64,000 nucleotides of DNA from a virus (taxonomy: Duplodnaviria; Caudoviricetes): the IMG/VR virus record IMGVR_UViG_3300032030_000020, positions 68,670 to 132,669 of that record; one strand, 5' to 3'. Within the stretch, counting starts at the first letter, position 1. Each line of letters opens with the position of its first letter. Shown here one piece after another: positions 30,001-60,671 of the stretch. A program made the translations under genes and the position numbers. The notes beneath the pieces were generated by a model that had not been told where the DNA came from, did no database searches, and worked only from the letters and a program-made list of their open reading frames with translations.

Positions 30001-33000
30001 TTGTTATCTTCATCGCTAAACAAAGATTGTACTAAACGCTCAATCGGCTTTCTTGTTTTTATTGCGTCGAGTGCCTTACCGGATGCTTGCGCGACTTGCA
30101 TGTCACTGTGTTTAATTAAATCAATAGCGTCGGCATATGTTTGGTTTGCGTATGCATCGACTATTCCAGCATCTTCATCGCTTAAATCTTGAGTTCTTCC
30201 GACAACTTGCCCCGCTTTGTATCCTAAACCCACGCCCCCGGTCGTAGTTTCTTGTTCAACGTTTGACGCTTCTGCGAAACTTGCACCATTTCTTGTCCCG
30301 CGCGTTTCTCCGCCTATCATTTTTTGGAGATCTTTGGCGGTTTCTCGTTCTTTCTCAATGGACTTCATGGCTTGTTGCGCATACCGATTTCTTTTCTCTG
30401 TTCTTTTTTTGAAGTCATCATCCGTTGCAAGAGCGTGGTACAACCATATAAAGTCCCCATCAAAGTCGCCAGTGTTAAGACTGTATAAGTCTTCGATGTT
30501 CATAACTGCAGCATCTGGAGACAATCCATATCTTTCTGCTGCCTTTTGCCTTCTTTGAATCGTGGCAAAGAAATTTGAACCGGCAGCATAAGGACTTCTT
30601 GTAGCGTTTGTTAAATCTTTGGTGCTTCCTCTTTGTGTAATAATTGTTCCGGTTTTTGCTTTCAGTTTTGCTGCCTCGCCTTGAGCATCGTGTCCTGTTA
30701 AATAATTTCCAACCGGATTCCATAAACTATAGGGGTTTGGTGTTGCGACAAGCATATCGGCTGGAAGCATAGCGTAGCCGCGAAGTGATTTTTCTTGCAG
30801 ATCTCTTTTTGCTCTCTGAATTTTGAATTGTATTCCACGATCAGTGTAAAGAAGGGAACTATCTTGTTGCACTCTTTTTGAATCCCTATCGTTTCCAGAA
30901 AAAAGGTAATCGATAATTCCTTCAGGAGTAGACAGTTTTTGAATTGCTTCTCGATAATTTGCTTCGGACCGTTTCATCATTTCAGGTGTGACAACAACTG
31001 AAGACATATAAGCAGGTGACCAGAATTGCTTCTTACCATAGAAACCCTCGGTATCTTTCATCAGTCGGAAACCAAAATCATATGCTGGGTTACCAGATTC
31101 ATTGAATAACTCATTTACCTGATCGGCAGTCAATGTGACAGCAGATCTGTTACTTTTAGAAGATCTGTTTTTGATCGCTGTTTTTTGATCTTCCGTTAAT
31201 CTGCTAAAGGCCGAATTGGAATTGCTCTTTGTAAGTGTTTCGGATATACTAAGAAACTCTTCCGGAGAAAGATGACTTAACGCACCTATGGATTTCACAG
31301 CGGTTTCATCGACAAGCATTTCGACGTCATCTCTCATGACGTCCACCATTCTACGATCTCGTAATTCTCTAAATTCAGCTAACTCGTCTTCTGTTAAATT
31401 GCGACGTCTATTGTTTAGCTCTTTGTATCTTGCAACTTGAGCAGCCGTTGTTCCTTGTCCAGCCATAAAAAAGTGAAGATTGTCATCGCCTTCAAACTCT
31501 TTATCTCTATAAGCGAATCCCGCATCTTCTAAGAACTTTCTCCAATCCTGATGAATTGCAAGAAATTTTGCGGGGCCCATTCTTGCCTGAACATCCTTAG
31601 AGTATGTTCTGTCATCAATTAATGCTCCGCCATCGAAACGAAATCTTTTTTCGAACTCTTGTTGCGTTTCTTTTTCGATTGCATCGTAAAACGACTTAAA
31701 ACTCACAACTGCAGCGCGCGGCGTTTTTCCTCCCAATTCCTCGATCGGAACAGAGTTTGAAAGCATTTTAGATTGATTAGAAAAATATTTTGCGTATTGT
31801 TTTACGCCTTCTTCTGAATATGGATCTATTGCCTTACCAGTTTTAGGATCTATCAGTAAATTGTTTTCGTCCGTTTCACTAAAATAAGAAAGCATTGGAA
31901 TGATCCCACGGGCTTTATCTTGCTTGATAAGAGCATCGTAGACATCTTTTCGGATCATCTTCATGCTTCCGCCGCCGGTTACGTTGGACACAGCTTTAAC
32001 ATATTCAAGATCTCCTTGATTTTCTGTACTAAGCGTTACAACGGCACCTTGATTAACTTGATCTATTAAATTTGCGTTGTCTCCGGCGAAATATGCTTTT
32101 CTTTGAGTCTTTCCTTTTAAATCTTTTTCTTCTTTGAATTTAACGTTTCCGTGCTCATCGTGTTCTCTAAAGTAATCAAGAGGCACATCGATGATCATCG
32201 GAGCGCCTTTTTTCGGAAGATTTTTTTCATCGAAGCCGTATCCAAAACTCCAATCTTCAAACTTGGCTCCGGGAGTCAATCTAATAATTCGATCTAACAG
32301 AGGGTTTCTCCCCATCGTAATCCATTCATCGTTTACGTCTTGAAATATGCCGTTTTGCTTTCTCCAATTATAATCTAATAAATGAGGATCAATATTATTC
32401 TGTCTCGGCGTTTGGACTGTAAATCGAAGTTTTCCGCCTTCATTTTGAATTGCCATACGTGGAATATTGATCATTGCAGAATTATTTAGTTTTTGAGTAA
32501 CATGTTCTTCGTCTTCGTATCGTAATCCTTGTGGGATTTGCCAGCCCTCTTTAATATATGGCATCGCGTCCGGCCTTCGATCTAACCACATTAATGTTTG
32601 AGCTTCTCTGTTTCTTTTGCTATCATTTCTCACGATAGCAGATTGATAATCAAAGTCATCAAATCTGCGGATGTATTGCGGGGCGCCTTGAGAAGCCCTT
32701 CTGGCTTTCTGAGCAACATATCCACCAAACTGATCTAATAGTGCGCCGTTGGCATCCGCAATATCGATATATTTATATTTTCCGCCGTTAACCTGTCGAA
32801 CAAGACCAGATTTGATTGCGGCTTCAAAAGCAACAGAGTTTCCTGATTCTATTTCATCTCTTATAGCGCGATAAAATTCTTCTTCCGTCGCCCTGTTGCT
32901 TGCTGGCAATTTGGGAGTTGGTTTGTCTGATTTTATTATGCGTCCACCGGACAAATAAGACGCTTTATATCTATCTGGAGCGTTATCTGTGACAATAACT

Positions 33001-33791
33001 GGCTCGTCAATAGCCGTCATACCAGAATATCTGCGGAAACCTGTTGTTACATCTCTTCTTAAATGTCTGTTGTTTGTTGTGGCTAAAGCCATTTTTAATG
33101 CGTTTTCTTGAGCGAGACGAGACGTAACACCCATCTGAGCCAACAGCTCCGTCACAGGAGAATAATCTTTCATTCCGCCTGATAAAATTGAAGAAATTAA
33201 TTGAACATCGGATTTTCTAGAATTGTCAGTCAACTGATTTTTTACAAGAATTGGATCTACTAGCGATTGAAGTTGTTTGAAATTGCTTCCTTGAAATAAC
33301 TGACCAAGCTCTTTGGTTACAGCTCCAAGACCATTCTTCCCAGTTGCAATTGCAGTAAACGTCTGTATATCAGACATATACTGATTTATGCTTTGAGCTG
33401 CAAATCTTATTTGGTTATTATATGTCTTTAAGTCAAATGAAGAAGACATCTTCTTTCCGGCTGTATCTATATATCCTGTTATATTTTGAAATGTTCTGTC
33501 TAATCCTTGGAACAAAGGAAGCATTGATTGCTGCAATGAATCCGGGATAGATGAAGCATTCTTTTTTATTTCTCCGAACACTCGATTTGCTTCATTTAGA
33601 TTTTTAAACAAATATGTATACGAAGACATTACAGAATCTTGTGATTCATCGGACACAAGAGGACTATCTATACTATCTGCCTTAATCGAAGACACAGTTT
33701 CTGAATAAGATTCTTTTATGGATTGCATTTTGCTTTGAAATTTATCTATGTTAGCGTCAATTTCAACTGTCGTAATAATTTGATTACTCAT
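12063..33791 (-). CDS. Giant tape measure polyprotein (7242 aa) with N-terminal two-barrel RNA polymerase domain and PD-(D/E)XK nuclease domain
   Basis: TP901-type tape measure core (~25500-26400), hydrophobic helices (~25220-25360), long coiled coils and C-terminal YATGGLVDFTGPAWVDG. RNAP motifs D720, R737/K742, R1065-S-P, D1109-F-D-G-D; nuclease motifs PD...ADWKS...QMAFY. Confidence 0.9.
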   Translation of the reverse strand: MSNQIITTVEIDANIDKFQSKMQSIKESYSETVSSIKADSIDSPLVSDESQDSVMSSYTYLFKNLNEANRVFGEIKKNASSIPDSLQQSMLPLFQGLDRTFQNITGYIDTAGKKMSSSFDLKTYNNQIRFAAQSINQYMSDIQTFTAIATGKNGLGAVTKELGQLFQGSNFKQLQSLVDPILVKNQLTDNSRKSDVQLISSILSGGMKDYSPVTELLAQMGVTSRLAQENALKMALATTNNRHLRRDVTTGFRRYSGMTAIDEPVIVTDNAPDRYKASYLSGGRIIKSDKPTPKLPASNRATEEEFYRAIRDEIESGNSVAFEAAIKSGLVRQVNGGKYKYIDIADANGALLDQFGGYVAQKARRASQGAPQYIRRFDDFDYQSAIVRNDSKRNREAQTLMWLDRRPDAMPYIKEGWQIPQGLRYEDEEHVTQKLNNSAMINIPRMAIQNEGGKLRFTVQTPRQNNIDPHLLDYNWRKQNGIFQDVNDEWITMGRNPLLDRIIRLTPGAKFEDWSFGYGFDEKNLPKKGAPMIIDVPLDYFREHDEHGNVKFKEEKDLKGKTQRKAYFAGDNANLIDQVNQGAVVTLSTENQGDLEYVKAVSNVTGGGSMKMIRKDVYDALIKQDKARGIIPMLSYFSETDENNLLIDPKTGKAIDPYSEEGVKQYAKYFSNQSKMLSNSVPIEELGGKTPRAAVVSFKSFYDAIEKETQQEFEKRFRFDGGALIDDRTYSKDVQARMGPAKFLAIHQDWRKFLEDAGFAYRDKEFEGDDNLHFFMAGQGTTAAQVARYKELNNRRRNLTEDELAEFRELRDRRMVDVMRDDVEMLVDETAVKSIGALSHLSPEEFLSISETLTKSNSNSAFSRLTEDQKTAIKNRSSKSNRSAVTLTADQVNELFNESGNPAYDFGFRLMKDTEGFYGKKQFWSPAYMSSVVVTPEMMKRSEANYREAIQKLSTPEGIIDYLFSGNDRDSKRVQQDSSLLYTDRGIQFKIQRAKRDLQEKSLRGYAMLPADMLVATPNPYSLWNPVGNYLTGHDAQGEAAKLKAKTGTIITQRGSTKDLTNATRSPYAAGSNFFATIQRRQKAAERYGLSPDAAVMNIEDLYSLNTGDFDGDFIWLYHALATDDDFKKRTEKRNRYAQQAMKSIEKERETAKDLQKMIGGETRGTRNGASFAEASNVEQETTTGGVGLGYKAGQVVGRTQDLSDEDAGIVDAYANQTYADAIDLIKHSDMQVAQASGKALDAIKTRKPIERLVQSLFSDEDNNKVGATDIFAYGLPTYIDAIATSNMRTQKMFADMDPTYGSRIREALTNNIQARFGNATQTEKDLADWYSGLVGNKMSGNFQISSNEDLQKGEQLIAKLQNAYNAEYKKDQNSEITKRMGKLLGEARSAIQQETLLGWTEGNLDDINKYYELAHWDNPIKDGTFVSESDRDVARILFQKNAQDAIAERKRAEEDQINEIIRDKTGRTGNPQRQYLLERLHTAYKHTGFNWSNASAYMEKPIDFFGLTYSDVFGGDTSHPGSEMSPEGYMRFDPKTEELQYATKQGHVSQREQIARRILTGSTIPSDIDADAFLGSAAHTFMETYGKLRKGANPLNDLEARNEAYKAFENYLFDDEHKNERDQARVSFSVENGRIVAHHADEATQKRLNAKLSYGQRRNVNGKTTYGSLDEIAQHYYGPLYEGRNHIGEGMIMSEGVMYNDNGEQLISKRTEGGNGVWLVPTQDGQLVIDMPRYKKDANGQTVERQAGLYFTPDMIKKDKNGNITIADWKSSGTGQKHAIAQMAFYATQLEELGRQYWQNGAVDKDLEWFGQFIDKDTGNSKITNIEAIDMFAQNPKQRILTWRYNQDKAQEVRDEVYNGMRRLSHSAKTGFYDELKTNVPLRDAKDKGDPNRPVYAPDEILDDVFFSDRSNVLDEKLLANLTSETNREVLQGRTGYKVGDGEFIDNDKSYLVAKFMKDQETLQQVQRFANKQSMKLHNTSFESSDAFTQNIDQLRDLFNLEQRETIDQYLKTVNTAPDVSLLSGDFDINQRKAIQTMANLSMLRKEYIDNLGKTAEYDYNSILYSKGDMLSKLQAGRRKYEQDISALRGAKNDSQFVQNGRFLTDEDEAYEYLMQNYDQSQREGETDFQWQTRIKNEEIQKRKDAKTLAASAKKAESQYDKRVAEIDNYRKSFEVGWIEELEKHKTEENFGLNQLFSGGSVESVINNLKLKSQDILNATTETDAVTGEKKIQDALLQQALITWAADIDKQAGSFASIQGTTLERVINSGASFDNKRVEAMMNGTALDPNVIRDKALYDFGATYAKINPSATQEQLNKAVETYAKTYDNSLREQQEMQAIRNDVSYNRFMRQGDQLSRNRYGGSRGIAARALAIHESALSQQENRLMTATQMRMDQERVVEQKKGTEGYDQEVAKLNELKNAEAAARTEMEQLGKHSVTAGDVFASLGQSVQALTQRLGRQVFQKALQETKRFVKEFDSSMNEIQAITLKSDTDMQAVRSQTINKALGLRTSVSNVATTEAALYRQGLSDQEVSERTDSIIKFATVTKLNVAEATKIITTALQNDLVGSATEAMDALVALGDSAATTAAEIGKGMQKAAASAKVAGVSYEELTALLTIGTSDTQLSGTQVGTALQTVFSRMRRLSLSGYTADQNGEKTTTSDAEAALKAVGVDLWDDKTTGKMRTAYEVMSDLSKVWQNLSDAQKSIVTNALAGTRQTNVFSTLMEGMSEDGGATLDKYLGLAKDSEGITQSKYEIAMQSLSASMETFRSSFDSVVASLVEAGSVTGVIDGISSLFQGLSTAAENAGSIGSGLSIITAGILGLTAAIATIVTTGSGPIGWLLGGLTAVATLVGGLHLSSVIGQIANPLSEDDKTLKEAQKKLNQNNAMSDAAQDQHKKQLDVIKEVEEAGVAWKKLNSIENENGLRDSLQNLASVFPELSGEIAKATTDLSKWKDIVLQASSISDKFLQTNKGLLSEKIRDQIQLKFKSSYNKNFEQIYEDPLAQSNALAAYNAFAGTNDPSLFSYDPGFTMLTAYRIGKGNKEVAPFTKYVEALLSKNGLDDALSYLRTNNDSDEAMPVLNQAAEFVFARMNSKPSFLGDANSSLKYHRDVINSLFYDSGVPTEIIDEYGNIDPSVYASLNSLMTTNGRLEDKPQHRKDLKYSLLSILARGSAQVQSSLQEQYPELRQHIIDNQTSVDQVPDEILDQAADWLDEFVTTQSNAGLLSARRAASTKTIHDAIQDQSSLINLYATEDFSAEAITKAIEAKVGKAVLNDKNGIYLEDGVPTQALIDLITGIFPEIEDVQGLENLIKEYSPEDYYGFKVGNNAFRAEDEAKRFVRNSYGKYRLSDIKQYKTNATVFQSTESLFDAARLKANEKNPYDTLRILQQGVVSGHTVDERNDYIARILGEGDLLYNLQNGIIDESQLPKEIRQLITRFDSEQTQTLKPIENYNDWQSFLTDLDNTELGATMQAYMATNPEMIAAYMSRNVNPKESLNTFKSAVANAKPGQFKTPDVMESVMNTITSSPEFIEELTTDKILEPFYKQMQSFFGGEEQLAAVFESITSGTYEGSDAQKAVNEALTKARIKKSLSTKQYLSSDVGSMAQQIMSGFTAGDFKDWTGAQAAFDFDEGDWSALESAYPSLKKFLDLTEAQRSTGEGQLIKQQAEIELSVTGLDTLEQAGEVLSGTKQLIEDLKKGGEFEIKAKIRLENEASEIQKNAAKITNGTYAEQVESMLAAGISAESIATNPGDSLKQGTDYWAEQRRQEAGRLTAMLQAGETEEANKTAAENGYTFVPAEDQEKVINHLRNDLGYFMGPDGTWYSSNPFDSNGKLLPFADGMISEYATQQYANLTKGYFVPGEDVGQVPYVNTAVGKSRPLSPYEINIAQRQLLYASTQEKWQNVYGSDPDLMKAASESFGEHGQNVLAMFNNPEVSPEELAKEQALAVQELNNNLRTQVDEYRNQLLSASQAENAFNNYALSPDEYASTIASFLPNRNEADVKQIMNGNDNKAKEALKKEIQDQIQTLLQTIANGLNIDIDPSDTSSAFETLSAALQGVDDKAAEAILQIAKMFDEFGNLTPTSTASALSDYASRYKSGRDSRNKLQQIIDAIDNGSVSTINTMLSENAGLFEGDTFADRKKSFEEWLSHQTQGVQDIFGEMAGRSQNQNFFTESDISNLRNESVFGRLTYNRDSEAYYKQFTGMLDAEGNLDVKAFKTAATEDADGFGEWAQSIEYVKDMLNESKDGVVQNGEALERFRVNALADALDAQNKFGDSTKRITDAMRKSKGTFEERTDLMTQYRKAIADANKYQNAMARLQGKKVSKEDESLFESLNFSKKKIEDAKKGNAEAVDEIYAALEKESQKYSTEAQDIGLGIIMSDTELQDAIQKQVQSYSDNLEDITIEGPGITVENGEVTYNGEALLSEFGSKMDEQTKQLIEEALASGGTATATVDGDGNIVNVSWSFSPNGGGGDGASGGGGGGGGGKSKAQKAIEDAKHALTELEHLQKIYDTKLKHAESVNDRVEFNSAFESQRQNYSQMAAVYRQNIEALEAQRAGMSETKDDYWSLTDAINGYKEALEELTNQIIELNKQRLDFIQQQQDVADSSQDRRKTVATAEKDYSALIEDYDTHRARVAELVNLRRESFAQNVPQLNEWRNELDRIQKEEGPNSQNAIDIMNKIADIEAEQFNLESEIIQEVRDLNALENEILQTELRRATEIPSGNSRLAQSGASLAEAQENYALQRQFLRDDNAFIEEQLAAKVAEADKFFARVNDAELKASDPDGWSEALESYISNAEEIDKLQIQLIENQRTIAESFVNEVTKGYEDATRAAKAYSESAVSIAEYFKTGEEFEKYRSSMRDAIKLTESLRESTAVQVAQLKEQLATMDEADPGYREIADALYQAEQQEIDYTKAIRDNTIAMQKNITEQIKLNAERQSIAPETYSSIAGSYGDMYKRNGQWDDYRKALQIQIDAAKQTKELDSEAAQQLYDRMTHTKGELPETGDPLREKQSRLEAERDARLAELNAQRDAEYAKLLEYQRRQNEIDKQRADLLANPPQMIVPDVEPVYEERETGEVRTVGRELTKEEAARRKTLQNQLHQLEAAMNGKGVQFDLWGTARATVRQLTAQSKQPGGENIHVPTVEDVAGSLGPALKKAQEEANKKRLSSMQEQYDKLKEQLDEIEATTKTEVAATETVNVAQVQAEEQARADYEAAMEEYNGQLETLASQESDLAASIEATNANIDSINADIDKTSSEFGSMIQYVTDEMGEAFFTEVESYMDAYQNLAELMKSDAQKAKEIFDKISEYQDITRQKVLFDINERNRAANGSINLANSYAGTYGKTSEYDLQAEAYATSYAQRATTIATLRDAANELYEEIMSHDEDNPWISEEVKDKAIKEYQNIIKQYSDEVSAAIQDRFNEEAARHTKITEDNNDTRRWIDQAMAVNQAAGAIYLNREDFENYRRLLGNNEVQLNKSIEARKKHIEALKEELDEYRDNPKLLRQTIDEINKEEIAILSDTKAIEENTKAIEANRMAQLDLATTRANLASTTNAQLANTYASMSQQAGDWEGYRGMLKAGNDANRTTYRNNKIEIDTLTQQLQNREITDPQQQSAAIQRLYQLITNNASLQATMESNERAINKSYLDETAMNVNLGTLRPNFLNDVYGQWASRYGSIGNYAAQRGALNQQLQASQQMVPVYEEAIKELKKQIAGLEEGSPEWQEATQRLYEYQAALQKLKISMEEAAEAIKKAVIDEIVKTYEDASRGPLHNIEKAGIYAGMYNSTMFYDLYQNMLETQMEDRKPVREAIQKEIESLQAELENTRGTSQYDRVVQEIYTRQNEYVRLEADDIQALIDIANSKVDSTLKARQKMIDSFDREIKVASMLSQYYSENKDSEMYTKAIERQKEAIKAKQEYEISEIDTLRELAKTTPENTDAFEKLEKQIYDSAMSVAEMDYELIKLDKQIKSMEIDEMLERMSRVDEMQNHRADMYTTVRTRYQNRDELTNVNTILASENEIQETRADTLRLFIEELEAELTTVAEGGDEYWRIASAIMKYEKELEETTNTVESNTKAMSENRKQILENRKAVEDMVDEEIRKRIQEERDMLAGTTSNQNQILEILRNSYRNRFELYERDLNKQKEALNEEKGLINERLQMRKKALEEERQTEELAELQRQLALISADSSRTKEAKELRKRIQELQQNRALSLAEDEANAQAEMLDDQIKSIDDNLDYQREKLDEYLEDANNFKETIDILLSGSFEDLMEWVKVNDETYKNSLDATRMEMTNSWEDTWKQMKGIVDTYFEQINEIMQSADSLLGYMTESTEYKNLSESGQELYIQNILDAYEKMRKGELDNADYEHFDDFVFRRILEELPEWWIDLLNNKVEGGSKIVPSTFEHDPNIAPNTFSDGSPYLGLTDNSLWMEAVTQFVENNTSATTGFIDSLKNAKDSKLYGEILGSQSTIESKTAERDKLLASVAGMDKGTEDYITTTNEINELGFQIEKETARKQALNEMFIEELTTQVNDSFANTSQAINLMKDIATDSLNDLTIAIGEEGTKEFENTLASLQENRTTLENFVNTLDADTKATVMNLYDNMTSNLDTESEMLNDMSTAVGERTGELAENVSNTASQASREISDTSKLLAGDLETITGNAAFDLNDNIDRKLVEEYKIEEAEKKTIDDASKQYSTDSQSLTTALGELKDKIEGIWGAEGTQTTAIEGLTGAEKDLTSLLNEFVKPGGTMDTYAKEINEYAALVSGYSGNVDTYLSAVSGYSGNVDTYLSAVSGYSGKIDTYLSAVTGVTVSMKNEISNFERYVDKKLTDVDAALKAGSMESFINGMYNTLLGRDADATGMSTWLNLGDKNKIVEGILGSDEFNSLHPEGADAFLSANGLTIAGLTGSATGSSTTTSGSSGKTSGSKSAAGKAKTNSNTGTATGMMYSYAWGAVWDPAANKYIAQPVDPSSPLAMSQDDARALAQAVNGEKVDAKNSFGKDNPTWTQQQIEGYQRMGKEEYTNTKNKFKAGESVTNDYAFVAYMHDNGDVEYSDNRNANSNLSKTIGKLTDYAIGSAQDLENLESVLNQKGVGVGDITHVGDGGTVTADTSKTYNVKNHNTGQTERLTIEKKYATGGLVDFTGPAWVDGTKIKPEAFLDSVDTKLIQSLTDTLRYVYVASPLMPPSDLIGNNSNTIGDVHVTINQAELKSDADFEDVARRVGQVFTKELTKQGFNLSNYAS
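13371..13499. repeat. 3 x 42-bp tandem repeat encoding SGYSGNVDTYLSAV in the tape measure
   Basis: AACCGCAGAAAGATATGTGTCTA unit recurs at 13371, 13413 and 13455. Confidence 0.9.
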
Positions 33792-50706: not shown

Positions 50707-50732
50707 TTTCCCCTTACGTGTATTTTCGAATG
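50707..50732 (-). promoter_or_regulatory. Candidate phage late promoter heading the morphogenesis operon
   Basis: Minus strand CATTCGAAAATACACGTAAGGGGAAA. Confidence 0.7.
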
Positions 50733-51059
50733 TCCACTTTATTTTTTGGCGGTTTTTCGGCCTGTTATTTAAGTTTCATTAAGAATCAGCCTAGAGAGAT
50801 TTGACGAATGAAGCAAAGCGGTTTGAGTTTCATTAACGATGGAAACAGAGAATGCAGGAAATAGAAGGGGTTGGGGAGATTGGAGAGGGGAGAGAGGGGA
50901 AACGGGGATAGGAGTTGGAAGAGAATATATATGACCTTTATGGGAGTTTGCGCAACTTTTCGACGTAAACTCCCCTTTTTTTATTTTCATGCGCTCAGCA
51001 GTGAGCTGGTCATGCCCCGAGCCGGAGACACCGGACGGTAGCCAAAGGAGGTGTAAAGC

Positions 51060-51371
51060 ATGACTTATATCGATTTTCTGCAGGCTTGCCCGCAGATGAC
51101 AGAACAGGATGCGCGTGACGCCGTGCGGTTCCTGCAGTGGCTCAATCAGCCCAAAAAGGTCACCCGGAGAACTGTACGAGTGAACTTGATCACCAAGGAG
51201 GAATGGGAACACACCCCCATCGACCTCCTTGATGGTCGAGTAATATCTGCCATTAAGGCAGAGCTGGCCCGGCAGAACCGGGAAGTTTATTGGAGTGTCA
51301 TCTCCGATAAACCGCTGGCAAGGGCCAGCGACGCCGTGGATCTTTCCAAGGCGTATCAGGTCATCATCTGA
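51060..51371 (+). CDS. Early hypothetical protein
   Basis: AAGGAGGTG RBS; 103 aa. Confidence 0.75.
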   Translation: MTYIDFLQACPQMTEQDARDAVRFLQWLNQPKKVTRRTVRVNLITKEEWEHTPIDLLDGRVISAIKAELARQNREVYWSVISDKPLARASDAVDLSKAYQVII

Positions 51372-51486
51372 TGGCCTGATTTTTTTATTTTTATGCGGAC
51401 TATCCCGCTCAGTAGTCCGTTACAAAATTATATGAGCAGTTGCGGTTTGATCAGCCGCAACACAGCGCGAAGGAGGCGCAAAAACA

Positions 51487-51690
51487 ATGTTCGAAAAGCT
51501 GAATGACTTTATCCCCGGCACGCACAACTTTGAGTTCACCATTGAGACTTCTGTTGGAAACTATATTGGCTACACGCGGTGCCTCAGCGATGCGTTTGTT
51601 GAAGCCGAATCCCTTGCGGCTTTAATGATCTATCCCCACATTGAAATTAAGTATCTCAACGGGGATTTGATCAAGGCATACGATCTGTAA
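51487..51690 (+). CDS. Early hypothetical protein
   Basis: AAGGAGG RBS; 67 aa. Confidence 0.75.
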   Translation: MFEKLNDFIPGTHNFEFTIETSVGNYIGYTRCLSDAFVEAESLAALMIYPHIEIKYLNGDLIKAYDL

Positions 51691-51754
51691 TCTTTCTGAG
51701 CCCTTCGGGGCTCTTTTTTTATTTTAACGAACGCCGAGAAAGGAGGTGCGAATC

Positions 51755-51865
51755 ATGGACCGAGAGGCCATTGAGCTTGACGTTGCTCTGGAGAGCTACG
51801 TCGATGCATGGTTTGACTTCTCCGGTATCGAGCCGGAGGAAAAGAACCACAAGGAGACCGACTAA
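51755..51865 (+). CDS. Early acidic micro-protein (36 aa, MDREAIELDVALESYVDAWFDF...)
   Basis: AGAAAGGAGGTG RBS; bounded by cassette motifs; missed by the ORF track. Confidence 0.65.
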   Translation: MDREAIELDVALESYVDAWFDFSGIEPEEKNHKETD

Positions 51866-51905
51866 GGTCTCCTTTTTTTATTTCAATGCACCAGAAAGGA
51901 GGTGT

Positions 51906-51998
51906 ATGAAGATGGCTGTGTTAATCATAGCTATCGTTCTGGTAGTAACCGGCCTGCCGGAGCTAATCCGCTACTACGCGGATTATTACAGACGGTGA
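51906..51998 (+). CDS. Early small membrane peptide (30 aa)
   Basis: AGAAAGGAGGTG RBS; hydrophobic MAVLIIAIVLVVTGL. Confidence 0.65.
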   Translation: MKMAVLIIAIVLVVTGLPELIRYYADYYRR

Positions 51999-52188
51999 AC
52001 AAAAGGCTCCTGTCCCTACCGAGTTCCTTGTATACTCGCTGGGGCGGTTGAGCCTTTTTTATTTTAACGGCCTGAGAAGGTGGCTAAAATCCTAGCCTTG
52101 AACATGGGTTGGCTCAGACGCTGAATAGCAAGCGTCCGTGTGGTTGCTACCAAGACCACGTATCAAACATAATAGGAGGAATCCCAAA

Positions 52189-52515
52189 ATGAAGAAAGCA
52201 ATCGAAACCAAAAACCTGGCCTGCGCCATCTACCCGTTCGAAGTATTTCGCAAAATTTCAGATCTTGCATACTGGGGCGAGGATTTGGACCACATCACCG
52301 CAATCGACGGCGAGCTGGCGGAAAAAGTTGCCGCCAAGGACAATGTCCAGATTTCTGGATCATTGACCTCCGGTGTACTCTACATATTCCACTGGAACAA
52401 AGCAGGAACCAAGCTGGTTCCACTTCATGTGTCAATGAAGCCGAAGACGGCTGCAAACATAGAAAATGGAAGTCGTCGCTATGGCAGCGGCGCCATTCTG
52501 AACGAATTGTTCTAA
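52189..52515 (+). CDS. Early hypothetical protein
   Basis: AGGAGG RBS before ATG 52189. Confidence 0.75.
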   Translation: MKKAIETKNLACAIYPFEVFRKISDLAYWGEDLDHITAIDGELAEKVAAKDNVQISGSLTSGVLYIFHWNKAGTKLVPLHVSMKPKTAANIENGSRRYGSGAILNELF

Positions 52516-52668
52516 TCCACAACTAGGAGCTCCAGAAATGGAGCTCTTTTTTTATTTTAACGGCGGCTCGGATAGACGAGCATATTAACCCTGCAACTGG
52601 GTAATAATAGGTTGCCACCGTCCTGCATCTGGTACCGCAGGATACGGTTGAATAAGAAAGGAGGTACC

Positions 52669-52923
52669 ATGAAAAAGTCTTATGAAAGTTTCCGCCACAG
52701 CTTCAGCTTTGAGGAGGCACTGGCCCATACGTCCTGCGCTTCCGTGGGCGCTATGATGGAGACGTATGATGTCTCCGTCAGCGCCCCCTGGGCTGAGGCC
52801 GTGCTGGTCACCCTGACGCCCCGGGAGGGCGTCACTGAGGACGACCCCGTCCTTGGAGCTGGTTGGGATACCGTCGAGGAGGAATTCCTCGGTTGTGTAG
52901 CCGAGGTCAACGCTGAGCGCTGA
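52669..52923 (+). CDS. Early acidic hypothetical protein
   Basis: AAAGGAGGT RBS before ATG 52669. Confidence 0.7.
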   Translation: MKKSYESFRHSFSFEEALAHTSCASVGAMMETYDVSVSAPWAEAVLVTLTPREGVTEDDPVLGAGWDTVEEEFLGCVAEVNAER

Positions 52924-53021
52924 TCCGGCACGTCTTTGGAGCAAGACGTTAAACATGCTCCTTTTTTTATTTTTACGCGGACTATTGGTCATAGTTCGAC
53001 AAAAAAGAAGGAGGTGTTCCT

Positions 53022-53378
53022 ATGAACATCACGACCATCGTTATCCTGCTGGCGCTGTTGGAGGAGCTGCCGGAGCTCCCCGAGCACGCGCGTGCTAATC
53101 GTCGTGCCAACCGGGAAAAAGCCATCCGTCACAATCGTAAAACATACCACAATCTCGTAGGAAACGGGATTTGGTATGAAAACCAGGACGAAAATGGTGA
53201 TTTTGTTGCATATCACCGCAGCAAGGTTACCAATAAGTACCAGAAGGGACGTTGGGAAACTGAACGCCTTTCTGGACACAGAAGATTTCAGAAGTGGAGT
53301 CGGGATTACTATCCCAGCTTCACAGACGAAAAAGCCACACGGCGCTGGAATGAAGAACTGAAAGAGTTCTTCGATTAA
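53022..53378 (+). CDS. Early basic hypothetical protein
   Basis: AAGGAGGTG RBS; 118 aa. Confidence 0.75.
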   Translation: MNITTIVILLALLEELPELPEHARANRRANREKAIRHNRKTYHNLVGNGIWYENQDENGDFVAYHRSKVTNKYQKGRWETERLSGHRRFQKWSRDYYPSFTDEKATRRWNEELKEFFD

Positions 53379-53473
53379 TCAATTAAAGGAGAGTTTGCTG
53401 GCTCTCCTTTTTTTATTTTTTACGGCAGCGGAAGCTGACCAAATAACCCGCATAGCGGGAACGGAGGTGCCAT

Positions 53474-53698
53474 ATGTCTAAGATTAACTCTTACACTGTA
53501 TTCAGCAGCGAACACGGCGTCACCACCATTGCGGAAATTACCGAATACTTCCGCAACGGAGACATCGTCACGGTAGAAGAATACCATTTCTGCCGCAACA
53601 ACGTTGAGTTCGGCTGGGCTCGTGTCCAGTCCGATGATCAGCACCGCCGCGTTGTCGGCGACAAGGAGCTGCTGGAGCGGTTCCAACTGATCGCGTAA
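53474..53698 (+). CDS. Early hypothetical protein
   Basis: GGAGGTG RBS; 74 aa. Confidence 0.75.
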   Translation: MSKINSYTVFSSEHGVTTIAEITEYFRNGDIVTVEEYHFCRNNVEFGWARVQSDDQHRRVVGDKELLERFQLIA

Positions 53699-53791
53699 CC
53701 CTTTTTGAAACCGGCGAGCGTGGCTTGACCATGCGACGACCCGGTTTCTTTTTTTATTTTTTATGACCACAAAAAGAAAGGATGTGATTGT

Positions 53792-54283
53792 ATGTGGGTG
53801 GAACCCATGGTTATTCAAAGGGCAAGAGTCGACTCCTTAGCAACAAAATTGACTCGTCCGCACGACTTCTACGTCAACTGCGGCGGCCACGCCTTTGGTG
53901 TGGATGGCTGGTATATACCGGCCGATAAGGAGGATCTGTTTCAAGACTTCTACACAGCCCGCAACAACAAAGGCGGCTGGAGAAGTCTTGAAAGAAAGTT
54001 CGTAAAGAACATCCTTCGCGACTTTCCGGGGCTCAAATTGCTGAAAAAAGAAAGTGTTGACAACGTGTCTGTCGATCTGGACAGATACGAAATCATCGCC
54101 TTTCGTATCCGGCGAACCGCCGTTTTCGCAGATTATCATTTTATGAGATGCGAAAAGAATGGAGATTGGACGGAAAAGCGAGGATCGAGAAGAGACATAT
54201 TCCGTTATAACTACGAAGACATCTACGATGTCTGGGGAGAGTATGACGGTAAATTATACTTCTTCGTAAGGGAGCGTCGTTAA
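53792..54283 (+). CDS. Early protein with possible papain-like catalytic motifs
   Basis: NCGGHAF...DYHFMR...WTEKRG. Confidence 0.6.
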   Translation: MWVEPMVIQRARVDSLATKLTRPHDFYVNCGGHAFGVDGWYIPADKEDLFQDFYTARNNKGGWRSLERKFVKNILRDFPGLKLLKKESVDNVSVDLDRYEIIAFRIRRTAVFADYHFMRCEKNGDWTEKRGSRRDIFRYNYEDIYDVWGEYDGKLYFFVRERR

Positions 54284-54429
54284 CGGCGTTCCCTTTTTGT
54301 TTTTTATGGCAGCCGGAAAGTACGGCCGGGTTGCTGGTGGACGCTAAGCATCAGCCGGGGTAAGGCACGGAAGCCTGTATTACGTCCTGCTTGTAATCTC
54401 CATATGCAAGCAGAGAAGGAGGTACATTT

Positions 54430-54657
54430 ATGGAGAAGTACACCATTATCGTCGACGGAAAAGAAACCGAAGTTGTCCTGATCGGGCGCGAACTCGATTG
54501 CAATCAGAGAGACCTTGAAGAATACCTGACGGGTTACCGGGGATCTTTCTTCGACGAGGTCTGGATGGACCCCATCACCAAAAAGTGCTACACCGAAGGA
54601 TACCTGCGCGGTTGGCACGAGTACGACGGCAAATACGCCGTTCAGTACGTTCGCTAA
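54430..54657 (+). CDS. Early hypothetical protein
   Basis: AAGGAGGT RBS; 75 aa. Confidence 0.75.
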   Translation: MEKYTIIVDGKETEVVLIGRELDCNQRDLEEYLTGYRGSFFDEVWMDPITKKCYTEGYLRGWHEYDGKYAVQYVR

Positions 54658-54748
54658 CCAAAGAGCCAGTCTTATGACTGGCTCCTTTTTTATTTTCTTG
54701 ACGGCATAAGCCGATCAATCGTCCACGAGACGTTAAAGGAGGATTCTT

Positions 54749-54997
54749 ATGAGTATCGAGATCACCATGGAAAACGTATTCGACCTGTTTATGGAACACG
54801 ACTTCCCTTGGTTTGAATTCTTGAACGACATGGAAGAGCCAAAAGCTTTGCTAACGATCAGCAGCGTTTCGAAAACAATCGTAACTACGATATTAATCGT
54901 AGACTCTGCCGACATCAGCAACAACGCATATACTTTCTGCTTGGAAACTAGAGAATATATGAAAGCAGGAGAACTGAAAACAGTAGATATACCGTAA
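54749..54997 (+). CDS. Early hypothetical protein
   Basis: AAAGGAGG RBS; 82 aa. Confidence 0.7.
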   Translation: MSIEITMENVFDLFMEHDFPWFEFLNDMEEPKALLTISSVSKTIVTTILIVDSADISNNAYTFCLETREYMKAGELKTVDIP

Positions 54998-55096
54998 GCA
55001 TTTCAAACTGGAGCAAAAGCTCCAGTTTTTTATTTTTTATGGCGACTGTGCCGAAAGGCTAAATTCAACAGTCGTCAAAGAAAGGAGATATGAGCT

Positions 55097-55423
55097 ATGA
55101 CTAAGGAAATGACGAACAAACTAACAAAAAACTCGAAGTACCTTGAGGTAGAAGATTTTAGTTATGACATCTTTACTGTATCAATCTTCTATTTCTGCGG
55201 AATGTTTTGTATTGACGTGTTTGGCGGTCGGGACGACGAAGAAGTGTATTTCTTCGGCACTGGATTTGACAAAGACCACTTCTACGGAGGATTTGAAACG
55301 GCCATAAAAGTCGCCCTCGAAGACATCCGCAAAAGTAATGCAGAGATCAAAATCAAAAAGATTGCAGAATCTGCTTTAGCCAGAGCCTGTGTTGAATTTC
55401 ATCTGAAACATCACTCAAAATGA
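55097..55423 (+). CDS. Early hypothetical protein
   Basis: AAAGGAG RBS; 108 aa. Confidence 0.7.
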   Translation: MTKEMTNKLTKNSKYLEVEDFSYDIFTVSIFYFCGMFCIDVFGGRDDEEVYFFGTGFDKDHFYGGFETAIKVALEDIRKSNAEIKIKKIAESALARACVEFHLKHHSK

Positions 55424-55495
55424 AACCTAAAACGACCAAAACTCGGCCACATCAAACAGGTGTGGCAGAAAATGTAAAAGGAGAGTGAAACAAAA

Positions 55496-55783
55496 ATGAC
55501 TCGTTGGTGGAACGCAGACGACCAGCTCGAACAGAACTTGCTTGACTGGTTCGGCAACGAAAATCTTAGTAGCTGGCTGACTAGATGCTACGAGATCTTT
55601 GTAGGATCGCAGGATGTAAAAGAAGTGACATTCTGCTTGAAAAATGGCGAATGCAGCTGGAATATTCATTATTCTGATCATTGGTGTTTCCCGGCCGGTT
55701 CCCATAGCTGCAGATCGGCATACGATATTCTAATCGGCTTCAAATCCATAATGGAAGATCCAAAGAAATACAGGCAATGGTGA
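55496..55783 (+). CDS. Early hypothetical protein
   Basis: AAAGGAG RBS; 95 aa. Confidence 0.7.
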   Translation: MTRWWNADDQLEQNLLDWFGNENLSSWLTRCYEIFVGSQDVKEVTFCLKNGECSWNIHYSDHWCFPAGSHSCRSAYDILIGFKSIMEDPKKYRQW

Positions 55784-55978
55784 ATCACCAAAAAGGAGAG
55801 TCTTTATGGCTCTTCTTTTTTTATTTTCACGGAACGGCTACCCGGCCGTCTCTTGGCAAACATCCTGCGGTTGACCACGCAGGTAGGGTGTGGTGTTGGT
55901 CATCCGTCGCGCTCACGAAACGAGCGGCATGCTAGTCCGGCATGACAACCTACAACAAGACTGAAAGGAGACACGACA

Positions 55979-58771
55979 ATGAAGGAACAGATCATGGAGA
56001 CAAAAGCGCAGGCCCTGTACGGTACTCTGAAGCTGAAGATGGCGGAACTGGAGACCGCCAAGGAAACACTGACCAAACTGACTGCTGACCGTCAGCCCGG
56101 AGAACATGGTGCCCGCCGGTCTATCCGCCGCGCAGAGAAGGAGCTGGAAGCGGCTCAGGCTGCTTACAACGACGCTTACAAAGCCTACAAAGCGGAGAAC
56201 TCCGCCGCGTGGGCTGAGTATAAGAACGAGAAGGAGGACAAGAAGATGAACGACACTGGACTTCAGAAGATCGACAGATATGTCGTGGCTGAAAGCAAGA
56301 CGGAGGAGATCACGATCTTCTCCAGCGCTGCCACCCGGCATATCATCGAGATGGGCCATGCTGTGAGAGACAGCGTGGTCAAGATCAAGTCGGAGTGCAA
56401 GGACACTCTGGCTATGGACTATGCCCACGCGGAAATGGTGCATTATTGCGCCAAGGGCTTCAGCAAGGACGGAAAGCGGTTCGTTCCGCTGATCGTGGCC
56501 GCGTCCGACCATCGGAAGGCGACAGCCACATGGATGGATGACCAGATCGCCGCCGCCTACTGGAAGTGGTCGATGTGCGGACTGACCCTGCCGGAGATCT
56601 CCGGGAAGATCGCCGTCAATAAGTATATGGCGTATCAGGGTCTCATGTGGTCGGCTTCCAAGAAGTTCAAGGAAGTGTTCGGCATCGAAATCGACCCGGC
56701 CCGAATCGCCGTGGTGAAGGACGGCTTCGTCGAAGTCACCGGCATCATGGACGTGGTGCACGACGACGGCACGGTCGAACACGCCGTGGAACGCACGATT
56801 ACGATCAATGCGTTCGACGGGCAGGGTTCAATGAGAGCTACCCTGTCCAGTGGTGAGTCCGTGACCATCCGGGCTCCGTGGATGAAGGCATTCGTGCAGG
56901 CCTGCAACTGGGATGAAGTGATTGAATACTTCACGAAGGTAAAGGGCGATACTAAGATCCAGACCATCTACGGAGAGAAGGACCTGCAGGACATCGATAT
57001 CGTCCTGACGGTGTCCTGCTTCAAGGCCGCCAAGCTGTACGACTCTTGGGAGAAGTACGAGAAGGCTTTCCGTGAACTGGGACACGAAGTCTGCGTCTGT
57101 GTCCGGGAGCATCAGCCGAAGCTGAAGGGCATGCCCTATCAGCAGGGACAGACGCTGCAGGGAACGGACGAAGACGTTGAGAAGTTCGCTCAGCACAGCC
57201 TGATGACTGTCTCCAAGTACGAGAACCAGAAGGAAGCTGTGAAGCTCCTTCGTGGGTATCACAGGGCTGCGGCAAAGCTGTATCCGGCCATGATGAAGGA
57301 AGGATACACCGCCCGGACCATGCAGGAGAAGTACACTTCTCTGAAGATGGAAATGCTCGGTGGCCGCATCCCGGAACTTGGCTACAATGCCTTCGGTGCA
57401 GCTGACATCAAAGCGTTCTGGGAACACGTGGCTGGACAGCCGATCGTTGGCTGCCTGAAGGCCGGTGAGTGCAGCCTGCTCCTGCATAAGGAAGGGCTGA
57501 CCGACGTGACGCGGTCTCCGCATCTGGACAACGCCCACGTTCTTCTGTACAACGTACGGAAGATGCCGTTCGTACCGGAGAAGAGCCCGACACTCTTCGT
57601 GAACATCTGGGATCTGACCACCATTCAGCTCAGGTGTGACTACGACGGCGACCACTTCTGGTACAGCCAGAACGCCAATCTGCTTGATCTGATTAAGAGG
57701 ACGTATGAAGTCCTGAAGAACCTGCCGATCGACTGGGAGGCACCGGAATCCACGAAAGGTGTCATCAACAGGACGACGATCAGCGAGTTCGTGTCCAACC
57801 TGCTGAAGGGCAGCGAAATCGGCCTGTATGCCGATGCACTGACCAAGATGTGGGCGAACGGCTATAATCATGACGTCTGCTGCTGGCTGACCTATGCTGG
57901 CAACGTGCTGATCGATGCCGCAAAGCACGGTAACGTAAAGATCGAGAAGCCGGACGCTGTGAAGGCCGTGGACTCAATGTCTCTGCCTGAGTTCTGCATG
58001 TACGCGAAAGCAGACAAAGAGCATCCCGCCGGTTCCAAGTACTGGACGGAAGAGCGCTTCGTCTGCGTCGACGAGCAGAAGCACAAGAAGACCGTGTATG
58101 CTTCCGAGTACAACGAGAAGAAGCACGGCACGATCAAGACCGTGCTGAAGCCCCGGACGCAGTACTCTGGCAGCTTCCTCGACAAATTCAGCCGCCGTGT
58201 GAAGGCACTCGTGCCCGACACTCTGGTGGTGAATGGGCTGGACGAGGAGATCTTCGACGTCACAGTCATGCTGATTAACCCGAAGCGGATAATCGGCAAG
58301 CTGGCTGGCCTGTCCAAGAAGGCGTCCAGCTACAACGACACCACCGGAAAGTACGAGGATGAGGGTGGCCTGTTCCAGCAGATCGCCTTCCGTCAGTCTG
58401 CCGAGTGGAAGGAACTCATCAACTACGACGAGTTCAAACTCGACTACAAGGCGTGGGAAGACGCCAAGGCCGAGTCCGCCCGTCAGGAGATGATCGCATG
58501 GGCTCGGGCGAAGTACGAAGGCAACGCCGTTGTCGCGGGGTACAGCGATGAGCAGATTCTGGAAGGAATCTACGACATCGTAACCCGCAACATGTTCGGA
58601 CCGGCCAAAGTATCCGATGGATACGACACGGTCGTGAAGAGCGCCTACTGGCGGATCTTCGGCAAGATGGCCTGCGACGTCATCGCCGACAATCTGGGTG
58701 AAGAAGCCCTGAGCTTCGACCCCCGGCTGGACGACGACCTCGGCGATGTCGATGGCGCCGAAGACTGCTAA
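55979..58771 (+). CDS. Single-subunit two-barrel RNA polymerase, YonO/QDE-1-like
   Basis: F-D280-G-Q-G; I-R298-APWM-K303; R512-S-P-H; C-D554-Y-D-G-D; C-terminal IGxxxD...IDAAKHG motifs typical of this family. Confidence 0.88.
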   Translation: MKEQIMETKAQALYGTLKLKMAELETAKETLTKLTADRQPGEHGARRSIRRAEKELEAAQAAYNDAYKAYKAENSAAWAEYKNEKEDKKMNDTGLQKIDRYVVAESKTEEITIFSSAATRHIIEMGHAVRDSVVKIKSECKDTLAMDYAHAEMVHYCAKGFSKDGKRFVPLIVAASDHRKATATWMDDQIAAAYWKWSMCGLTLPEISGKIAVNKYMAYQGLMWSASKKFKEVFGIEIDPARIAVVKDGFVEVTGIMDVVHDDGTVEHAVERTITINAFDGQGSMRATLSSGESVTIRAPWMKAFVQACNWDEVIEYFTKVKGDTKIQTIYGEKDLQDIDIVLTVSCFKAAKLYDSWEKYEKAFRELGHEVCVCVREHQPKLKGMPYQQGQTLQGTDEDVEKFAQHSLMTVSKYENQKEAVKLLRGYHRAAAKLYPAMMKEGYTARTMQEKYTSLKMEMLGGRIPELGYNAFGAADIKAFWEHVAGQPIVGCLKAGECSLLLHKEGLTDVTRSPHLDNAHVLLYNVRKMPFVPEKSPTLFVNIWDLTTIQLRCDYDGDHFWYSQNANLLDLIKRTYEVLKNLPIDWEAPESTKGVINRTTISEFVSNLLKGSEIGLYADALTKMWANGYNHDVCCWLTYAGNVLIDAAKHGNVKIEKPDAVKAVDSMSLPEFCMYAKADKEHPAGSKYWTEERFVCVDEQKHKKTVYASEYNEKKHGTIKTVLKPRTQYSGSFLDKFSRRVKALVPDTLVVNGLDEEIFDVTVMLINPKRIIGKLAGLSKKASSYNDTTGKYEDEGGLFQQIAFRQSAEWKELINYDEFKLDYKAWEDAKAESARQEMIAWARAKYEGNAVVAGYSDEQILEGIYDIVTRNMFGPAKVSDGYDTVVKSAYWRIFGKMACDVIADNLGEEALSFDPRLDDDLGDVDGAEDC

Positions 58772-58854
58772 CCCAACCGACAGGGAGACTGGTTTCGACC
58801 AGTCTCCTTTTTTTCACGCAAACGAGAGTCTAGCAAAGAAAGGAGAACGGAACT

Positions 58855-59250
58855 ATGTACAATATTATTTACAAAAACGACGAGGGGATGAACTTCGTCT
58901 ACCGCTGCTCCGACGAGAAGCAGCGTGACCACTTCGTTTCTATCCTAACGAACGCCGGGATTGAGTACGATGTAAGGGAAACGACCGACGAGATGTATTA
59001 CCAGATCTGCGGCTGCCTTTTCAGGTCTGACGGTCAGATGTACACATTCGTCAGGCACGAAGGAGACGCAAAACCCGGCATGTCAGCCGCTGCTGTTGTC
59101 AAAGACTCCTACGGACATGAATCCACCAAGGAAGTAATAATCGTTGATACGAGAAAAGCTTCTGAGTCTGAAATTCACGCCATTGCGCGTGGACTCGGGT
59201 ATAAAGAGCTCGGTAGCATTGAGCGTGTCTGGCAGCGCAAATTAGCATAA
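58855..59250 (+). CDS. Hypothetical protein
   Basis: AAAGGAG RBS; 131 aa; last gene of the cassette array. Confidence 0.75.
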   Translation: MYNIIYKNDEGMNFVYRCSDEKQRDHFVSILTNAGIEYDVRETTDEMYYQICGCLFRSDGQMYTFVRHEGDAKPGMSAAAVVKDSYGHESTKEVIIVDTRKASESEIHAIARGLGYKELGSIERVWQRKLA

Positions 59251-59349
59251 CCAAAATCTGAGTCAGCCGAAAGGCTGGCTCTTTTTTTATTTACGCGACC
59301 GCTAGAGACGCTGCTCTTTAGCGATCCAACACAATGGGGCCCACCCCAT

Positions 59350-59389
59350 TTTTTGCGGCCCCACCTTTTTCTGCGGCCCCCATTTTTTC
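59350..59389. repeat. Paired T-run/GCGGCCCC repeats (second pair at 60566-60604)
   Basis: TTTTTGCGGCCCC and TTTTTCTGCGGCCCCC here; TTTTTGTGCGGCCCC and TTTTTTCGCGGCCCC at 60566-60597. Confidence 0.7.
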
Positions 59390-59947
59390 ACTTCGTTCAA
59401 GTTACAATGCTCTAAAGGTCGCTTACGCTGGCTTGATAAAGATGAAACTGTTTCTCCAATGTTTCGGGTGCTGTCCCGGGGCGTGGGGTTCCTTGTTTCT
59501 TGAGCTCGTTTGTGCGGTTCCCGGGGCTCGGGACGGAAGTTTCTGTGCTTCGTGGCCGCTGACGCTCGCTTGATACCTATGAAGGATTCGTCCTTCCGCA
59601 GAGTGCGACTGCGTTACAAATCGCATATCAGGCGTCGCTCGATGAGTTTATGCGCCGAGTTCGTCTGGGTACACGTTACTGCCCACCATAGGGTCAGTCC
59701 GTCATTTGCACGGCGGCTGACGGCTTGACGGTAGCGAGCTAAAACCGTTCCTACTGACGCGGAGTCGAAAAAGGAGATACAGCCGATTGTGCAATAGGCT
59801 TGTATTGAGTGTAAGTAGCCGCGTGAGGCCAGCCAGTGCCGCGAGTAAGAAACTGGCATTCCCATAGTTGGTCTAAGCCGGTCGCTGACGCTGGCTTGAT
59901 ATTTATGAGACTGCGGTCTCGACAAATTTGAAAGGAGACTTTGTCCG

Positions 59948-60202
59948 ATGAAAACGATGAAACAGATTGCTCAGCTCGAACGTATCTATGCGGAGAAGGC
60001 CGCGAACGCGGAGGCCCTGATTAAGATTGTCAAGCGCGAGGTCGACTACGTGCACAACCACCTGAACACCATGTGTCTGGAAGAACTGCAGGAGCGGCTG
60101 GACAACATCCGCGACATGCGGAAAGAACTCGCCGCAGCGAATCAGTGGTGCGAAGACACCAAGAAAGAATTGGCGGAGTTCTATGCTCCTGCTATCCGGT
60201 AA
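59948..60202 (+). CDS. Hypothetical coiled-coil protein
   Basis: AAAGGAG RBS; 84 aa. Confidence 0.75.
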   Translation: MKTMKQIAQLERIYAEKAANAEALIKIVKREVDYVHNHLNTMCLEELQERLDNIRDMRKELAAANQWCEDTKKELAEFYAPAIR

Positions 60203-60283
60203 CCCCACATATTGAACATTCCTGCCCCGGCCGACTGCGTAGCAACGTTCGGGGTGGATGCAGTTCAACAACGAAGACATTCA

Positions 60284-60608: not shown

Positions 60609-60633
60609 CATTCGAAAAATTACGTATGGGAGA
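60609..60633 (+). promoter_or_regulatory. Candidate phage late-class promoter, + strand copy
   Basis: CATTCGAAAAATTACGTATGGGAGA. Confidence 0.65.
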
Positions 60634-60671
60634 TAAACGGCTTACGCCTGCTGAAACAGATGAAAGGAGTG

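Follow-up and report, generated by a model that had tools for sequence, protein, structure and literature searches.

Coliphage N4 expresses its genes through a relay in which a virion RNA polymerase (RNAP) acts first, followed by RNAP II and then by the host RNAP. In Thermus phage P23-45, the 5,002-amino-acid (aa) tape measure protein gp96 carries an N-terminal DFDGD virion RNAP, which uses 14 AT-rich promoters to transcribe a pre-early block of 9 kb. Within that block, gene 64 encodes a non-virion RNAP, which goes on to transcribe the early genes and some of the middle genes from a different set of promoters; the late genes are left to host RNAP (Chaban et al. 2024, Nat Commun 15:317, PMC10770324). 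In the Bacillus prophage SPbeta, YonO, a processive enzyme whose DNA-dependent RNAP activity has been proven by experiment, transcribes the late genes, and yonO itself adjoins the late operon and owes its expression to host RNAP (Forrest et al. 2017, PMC5467207). Here, we analyzed a 64,000-nucleotide (nt) stretch of DNA (the window) from an uncultured tailed phage (Caudoviricetes; IMG/VR record IMGVR_UViG_3300032030_000020, positions 68,670 to 132,669) and asked how the gene at 55979..58771 (+ strand), which encodes the 930-aa protein P0001, compares with these systems. P0001, here called RNAP-A, is a single-chain two-barrel RNAP and a probable non-virion enzyme. We favor, with moderate confidence, a P23-45-like relay in which RNAP-A is the non-virion polymerase and a further enzyme encoded outside the window, RNAP-B, is the probable third stage.

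The window is the last part of a 132,669-bp virus record rated 99% complete, and positions refer to the window unless the genome is named. The genome is laid out as two divergent arms. The − strand (late) arm, with the terminase, head, and tail genes and a 7,242-aa tape measure protein, runs from window 51.2 kb down to genome 56.4 kb; the + strand arm runs from window ~50.95 kb through the record end/start to genome ~56.3 kb. Three loci of RNAP type were found in the genome: the tape measure protein's N-terminal domain, RNAP-A, and RNAP-B.

The RNAP-A gene and its product

The RNAP-A open reading frame (ORF) is open for 930 codons, with a ribosome-binding site (RBS; AAAGGAG) ahead of its ATG. 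Two-barrel RNAPs are defined by an Asp and two basic residues in a beta-like barrel and by R-x-P and D-x-D-x-D in a beta'-like barrel (PMC2919709). All eight of these universal residues are present in RNAP-A (D280, R298, K303, R512, P514, D554, D556, and D558), the last three within the catalytic metal-binding loop D554-Y-D-G-D558 (57638..57652, +), and all eight are invariant in an alignment of 20 homologues and identical to the aligned residues of YonO, including the R at the first basic position. An AF2 model (pLDDT 83.6) shows the overall fold of two double-psi beta-barrels. The top Foldseek matches to this model were RDR2 (7rqs, E 9e-15, TM 0.50) and QDE-1 (2j7n, E 9e-12), matches to these two enzymes spanning E 9e-15 to 1e-10; next came the non-virion RNAPs P74-26 gp62 and P23-45 gp64 (E 8e-6 to 1e-5), and phi14:2 gp66 of a crAss-like phage was matched at E 1.9e-4.

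Sequence comparisons point to the same family. RNAP-A matched the Pfam domain RdRP (PF05183) over aa 554-688 with 29.9 bits (gathering cut-off, 23.8) and phrog_8308 at E 1e-73, and tblastn recovered an SPbeta-like YonO locus (26% identity over aa 111-686, E 2e-33) together with matches in Psychrobacillus phage Perkons, Clostridium phage D-1873, and Enterocloster phages. Metagenomic homologues of RNAP-A number more than 160, at 47-73% identity and on contigs of up to 132 kb. A single-sequence search of viral contigs with P0001 gave no match, and a profile was required; likewise, P0001, its family profile, and the tape-measure domain had no match among the sequences of solved structures, where neither P0001 nor the tape measure protein matched gp64 or gp96 of P23-45 (listed structures PDB 8f72, 8f5m, and 8h2m). 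Residues 1-93 form a coiled-coil extension that is confined to the closest relatives. RNAP-A belongs to the YonO/QDE-1 clade as a complete and free-standing two-barrel RNAP, and the earlier statement, made from the DNA letters by what we call the sequence-only reading, that the gene encodes a 930-aa protein with full two-barrel RNAP motifs is borne out by residues, model, and fold matches alike. We infer that the enzyme is catalytically competent because its eight residues are kept, its predicted fold and its homologues agree, and it is homologous to the proven DNA-dependent RNAP YonO.

Since the Pfam domain is named RdRP and the closest solved folds, RDR2 and QDE-1, belong to enzymes that copy RNA or single-stranded DNA, one could instead read P0001 as an RNA-templated or priming polymerase, whether a QDE-1-like enzyme, a maker of replication primers, or a maker of noncoding RNA. 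We regard this as very improbable: the clade also includes YonO, a DNA-dependent RNAP that is processive (PMC5467207), separate genes exist in this phage for a Toprim primase-like protein and for Pol III alpha, and the fixed place of the RNAP-A gene in the predicted first-expressed block matches that of the non-virion RNAP of P23-45.

As a DNA-dependent RNAP, RNAP-A resembles the described enzymes to different degrees. It shares with SPbeta YonO the two-barrel clade, the eight residues, a single chain, and a size of ~100 kDa; however, it is a paralogue encoded in the putative first-expressed block, whereas yonO lies beside the late operon. In fold and sequence, it is nearer to YonO, QDE-1, and RDR2 than to gp64 of P23-45. 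The phi14:2 gp66 protein (PDB 6vr4) is also a single-chain two-barrel RNAP of the QDE-1-like clade from a gut phage, but it is a 2,180-aa virion protein, in contrast to the compact early-gene product described here.

The RNAP-A gene has a G+C content of 56.9%, against ~43% for the genome and 42-44% for RNAP-B. In seven of the eight relatives checked (among loci L007-L015, L029, and L031), the RNAP-A gene also exceeds all of its flanks in G+C, by 4-13 points; the exception is L011, where the gene is at 0.523 and the flanks are at 0.434-0.532.

The early cassette array and the tape-measure domain

RNAP-A is the second-last cassette of an early (pre-early) array (50945..59297, +) made up of ~15 class-1 elements, each of which leads into an RBS and a small ORF. 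Each class-1 element consists of a GC-rich hairpin (7-9-bp stem, often with a tetraloop) followed by TTTTTTTATTTT, of the general form T6-7 A T4-6 n A Y G, with an RBS ~20-45 nt beyond the T-tract. The window contains 11 copies of the string TTTTTTATTTT, where 0.22 would be expected, all on the + strand and within 50977-55827; counting variants, there are ~15 elements at 50975-59282, and the 8.3-kb array accounts for 11 of the genome's 12 + strand copies. The element upstream of RNAP-A (55790..55831, +), a candidate promoter/terminator unit, comprises a hairpin at 55790-55820 and TTTTTTTATTTTCACG up to 55831, 150 nt 5′ of the ATG. Two points of the sequence-only reading, that RNAP-A lies near the end of the array and that it shares with the other early genes a hairpin/T-tract motif (placed at 55816), are therefore retained. 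Between the element and the start codon lies a GC-rich leader of ~147 nt (55832..55978, +), the predicted fold of which is not significantly stable (z −1.65); no Rfam family was found in window 50000-64000. Directly 3′ of the RNAP-A stop is a class-1 variant with a hairpin and T7 CACG, without the ATTTT half (58782..58822, +).

Two related loci (L029 and L031), with RNAP-A proteins 61-62% identical to that described here, keep the class-1 element, including its internal A and the AYG, and share the same layout: late arm, strand switch, small ORFs, and RNAP-A, followed by RNase H, SSB, and DUF932 genes. RNAP-A is the only conserved gene of an otherwise hypervariable array, and the genes downstream of it also have homologues in relatives. 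For the small early-cassette ORFs (51061-55783 and 58855-59573, +), PHROG gave no match and not even the closest relatives had a homologue, as expected for host-takeover or anti-defence genes.

Upstream in the expected order of events, the tape measure protein (12063..33791, −) has a series of RNAP-like motifs in its first ~1,200 residues, namely, D720, R737, K742, R1065-S-P, and DFDGD at 1109-1113 (nt 30453-30467, −), and a PhageMin_Tail domain at about aa 2507-2715. The pattern looked for in such a domain was [RK]xP with DFDGD 20-100 residues further on. The first ~1,200 residues were also found in seven other giant proteins (5,000-6,600 aa; 29-42% identity), and NTGDFDGD and the RxP spacing are invariant across all eight. 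In support of the tape-measure RNAP named by the sequence-only reading, the tape measure does carry a conserved RxP...DFDGD domain. The further statement that the tape-measure enzyme and RNAP-A are two paralogues is not supported: the domain matches P0001 marginally, around the catalytic loop (BLASTP E 8e-4; hhalign probability, 20%). No match was returned by tblastn of the N-terminal domain against 50,697 phage records. When a model of the 1,200 residues was compared with QDE-1 by VIA-align, both barrels were covered over ~335 residues (model residues 370-1187, QDE-1 residues 475-1111; Z 4.5-5.2), and a wide VIA-align search with the same model was dominated by an N-terminal helical bundle (residues 6-258) and was uninformative on the polymerase part. 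From the motifs and the model comparison, the tape-measure N-terminal domain likely has an RNAP fold.

The arrangement is close to that of P23-45. Both phages have a giant tape measure protein with an N-terminal DFDGD RNAP-like domain (here predicted); both have an ~8- to 9-kb block of short genes, each behind a conserved AT-rich motif, with 14 transcription start sites there and ~15 elements here; and in both, the block holds the gene for a free-standing single-chain two-barrel RNAP. Unlike in P23-45, the AT-rich element is fused to a hairpin, and the host would be mesophilic, from rumen or gut. By this likeness, the RNAP-like domain of the injected tape measure would most likely transcribe the first-expressed block, starting at the hairpin/T7AT4 elements.

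The class-1 elements would then be combined terminator and promoter units for a non-host polymerase, a reading to which three observations lead. First, sigma-70-like sites are not enriched in the array (8 against 10.4 expected). Only two candidates are near-intergenic, both on the + strand, both weak (9/12), and both overlapping ORFs: one at 52144-52173 overlaps the start of ORF 52138, and the other, at 55637-55666, lies inside ORF 55496-55783, ~310 nt upstream of RNAP-A. Second, the first class-1 element (50945-50990) lies at the head of the arm, in the intergenic region from which the two arms diverge, with nothing upstream on the + strand to terminate, and is followed by an RBS and ORF 51061-51372. 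Third, the element is conserved in L029 and L031. Transcription of the early block by host RNAP is unlikely, given the first two of these observations.

Several findings pull the other way. A class-1 element also fits a textbook intrinsic terminator, so that its promoter role is inferred, and the motif was not found when searched for in relatives at ~50% identity; the AF2 model of the tape-measure domain is weak (pLDDT 68, and <50 across the catalytic loop), and in a Foldseek search its top match, QDE-1, reached an E value of only 0.35. The terminator likeness and the weak fold would suit a T7-like logic: host RNAP reads the early block past elements that are only leaky terminators, phage-encoded transcription begins with P0001, and the DFDGD domain of the tape measure either lacks activity or has another role. 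Terminator-like sites are indeed in excess (31 against 14.7 expected), and the SPbeta early genes are read by host RNAP (PMC5467207). We nevertheless judge this explanation improbable. Besides the want of sigma-70 enrichment and a first element with no transcript to end, the T-tract lies just ~20-45 nt from the next RBS, its internal A and AYG persist across relatives at the RNAP-A divergence given above, the DFDGD and RxP spacing of the tape-measure family does not vary, and P23-45 provides a precedent for a start by a virion enzyme.

Past the array, tandem clusters of short GC hairpins with T-runs (GCGGCCCC...TTTTT) occur at 59315-59387 and 60566-60604 (+); they close the early array and stand ahead of a class-3 motif (below). 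A small membrane protein (62693-62998, +) contains the nine residues LNTGDFDGD, identical to the tape-measure catalytic loop. At this place, relatives have LNVGDCDGD, PKGDTDGD, or no such stretch; we therefore left it out of the system as a variable loop whose identity with the catalytic loop is probably a coincidence.

RNAP-B and a proposed relay of three polymerases

A search of the whole record with P0001 revealed a second locus at genome 21.5-23.2 kb. Uninterrupted orthologues of this third two-barrel RNAP gene, RNAP-B (genome 19474-24031), are present in four related IMG/VR genomes and are 940-955 aa long. Aligned to the genome, one of these orthologues falls into three collinear blocks that meet exactly at residues 219|220 and 565|566, which shows that the RNAP-B gene carries two introns. 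These are 1,404 nt, holding a 364-aa Cys-rich ORF, and 310 nt in length. Their upstream exons end in T and the introns in G, as is canonical for group I, and the two share a common 3′ end; the second has a weak Rfam group I match and splits the catalytic motif QFD|VDGD. The spliced product is 947 aa long and has all eight catalytic residues.

RNAP-B, and not P0001, is the YonO orthologue. By hhalign, it matches the YonO family over its full length at E 3e-135, whereas RNAP-A matches YonO at 5e-49 over aa 94-685 only (RNAP-A against RNAP-B, E 2e-48). In a maximum likelihood tree, YonO, Perkons, and D-1873 form the sister group of RNAP-B (support, 96/98), whereas RNAP-A is a separate long branch, so that P0001 shows neither the full-length collinear similarity nor the tree grouping of an orthologue. 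The sequence-only reading had called P0001 YonO-like and given it the late-gene role of YonO; as the real YonO orthologue is RNAP-B, transfer of that role to the paralogue P0001 is unsafe. Nor does P0001 complete a cascade of two polymerases, as had been supposed, because RNAP-B is conserved beside RNAP-A in five of the five related genomes tested.

In the same five relatives, a DFDGD or tape-measure profile match lies in a giant or fully open late-strand frame in four. A single DFDGD occurs on the late strand in G001, G002, and G004, in a frame without a stop anywhere in the retrieved locus (at least 1,005 aa), and the profile search found giant frames in G003 (5,452 aa) and G004 (4,637 aa). 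In G005, the DFDGD and profile matches are in frames of 293-584 aa broken by TAG.

The class-3 motif, AATTTGTCnAATCTGGTnGGGACATTCGAAAAnnnACGTAnAGGGAAA, has eight copies in the genome, on both arms: on the + arm at genome 15521, 25027, 32478, 41063, and 129278, and on the late arm at genome 80654, 107730, and 119401, including the head of the terminase operon. In the window, the copy downstream of RNAP-A (GACATTCGAAAAnnnACGTAnnGGGA; 60609..60634, +) is a candidate promoter for a non-virion RNAP, and another stands at the head of the late (terminase) arm (50707..50732, −). The motif core is kept in L029 and L031, and one copy is upstream of RNAP-B. Nothing convincingly like class-3 was found near the SPbeta late promoter region, and the promoter of YonO is undefined in the literature.

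On this evidence, RNAP-A would be an active DNA-dependent enzyme that is not carried in the virion and is made from the first-expressed block. It would then take over the conserved + arm (RNase H, SSB, Pol III alpha, and primase-like genes and the RNAP-B gene) from promoters other than class-1, for which the eight-copy class-3 motif is the best candidate. RNAP-B is orthologous to YonO of SPbeta and so probably acts on the late structural arm. The course that had been proposed from the letters, in which a tape-measure RNAP transcribes the early cassettes and a second RNAP made from them transcribes the middle and late genes, thus keeps its first half, which the motif, array, and domain context support, and loses its completion by two enzymes and the YonO role.

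Since class-3 is the only strongly conserved non-early signal and lies on both arms, the terminase operon head included, P0001 alone might transcribe all middle and late genes, leaving RNAP-B redundant, decaying, or in charge of a small special regulon; the class-3 copy ahead of RNAP-B would suit one enzyme driving everything after the early block. The state of RNAP-B makes this unlikely: it keeps its eight catalytic residues and its full-length similarity to YonO, a dedicated late-gene enzyme in SPbeta, it is present in all five relatives and uninterrupted in four, and its introns are bounded in the canonical group I manner, between exons that join exactly.

Three further considerations weigh against the P23-45-like relay that we prefer. 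The spread of class-3 over both arms and upstream of RNAP-B is compatible with either RNAP-A or RNAP-B as its reader. The G002 record has terminal repeats, and its early block lies ~40 kb from the record end, unlike in P23-45. Finally, the enzymatic activities, virion packaging, timing, and pairing of promoters with enzymes are all deduced from genes, folds, and motif positions.

A relay of two enzymes alone is not new, being the mechanism already published for P23-45 (PMC10770324). What is new here is the third polymerase, RNAP-B, the counterpart of YonO. Late genes in P23-45 pass to host RNAP, whereas the present phage group has a third phage RNAP; if it acts as proposed, the program would join the front end of P23-45 to the back end of SPbeta in one genome. 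N4 offers the likeness of a stepwise relay opened by an injected polymerase and of early promoters that contain hairpins, but its enzymes are T7-like right-hand polymerases, its RNAP II has two subunits, and its last step uses host RNAP. In its furthest form, three single-chain two-barrel RNAPs would act in series, each with its own promoter class and with host RNAP never needed, in widespread 120- to 150-kb siphophages of rumen and gut. We put this forward tentatively and think it rather less likely true than false. Were such a three-enzyme relay to hold, these would be the first known tailed phages to pass through all temporal classes without host RNAP, on three related minimal RNAPs, and they would offer three compact (~100-kDa) orthogonal polymerase/promoter pairs of cellular fold. 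The P23-45 strategy, to our knowledge demonstrated by experiment only in Thermus phages so far, may be common in mesophilic gut and rumen phages, judging from the >160 homologues of RNAP-A.

Introns, mobile elements, and other features of the genome

The + arm appears rich in introns. Intergenic stretches near genome 29068 and 30166 share the RNAP-B intron 3′ end, AAATATCGGG, and further group I introns of this arm include genome 24622-24949, outside the window, which is a strong Rfam match (97 bits).

A second repeated motif, class-2 (CGCTKACGCTGGCTTGATA), has five + strand copies just downstream of RNAP-A. Its copies read CGCTKACGCTGGCTTGATAnnnATG followed by a short hairpin and are at window 59420, 59557, 59883, and 61549 and at genome 1290 (+), one of them ahead of a TnpB gene. 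They could represent a second class of promoters or a family of small RNAs; L029 has a single doubtful copy.

The in-frame TAG codons of G005 (loci L013, L037, and L040) fall within the matches to RNAP-B as well as to the tape-measure RNAP domain and could reflect TAG recoding or broken genes. As for the host, the sole genome match was to a 9.7-kb contig of a yak-rumen Paludibacteraceae metagenome-assembled genome, possibly binned there in error; a Bacillota host, rather than one of the Paludibacteraceae, is suggested by the strong Shine-Dalgarno sites.

In addition to the RNase H, SSB, primase-like, and RNAP-B genes, the + arm holds genes for Pol III alpha, a Toprim/helicase-like protein, an RNA ligase, a reverse transcriptase, two TnpB proteins, and an integrase. 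The reverse transcriptase gene (RVT_1; genome 13861-15314, outside the window) is preceded by a run of 22 A and could be a retron, a diversity-generating retroelement, or a group II remnant. The two TnpB/IS605 OrfB genes, likewise outside the window, are at genome 1421-2545 and 24959-26251, and the latter lies directly behind a class-3 motif copy.

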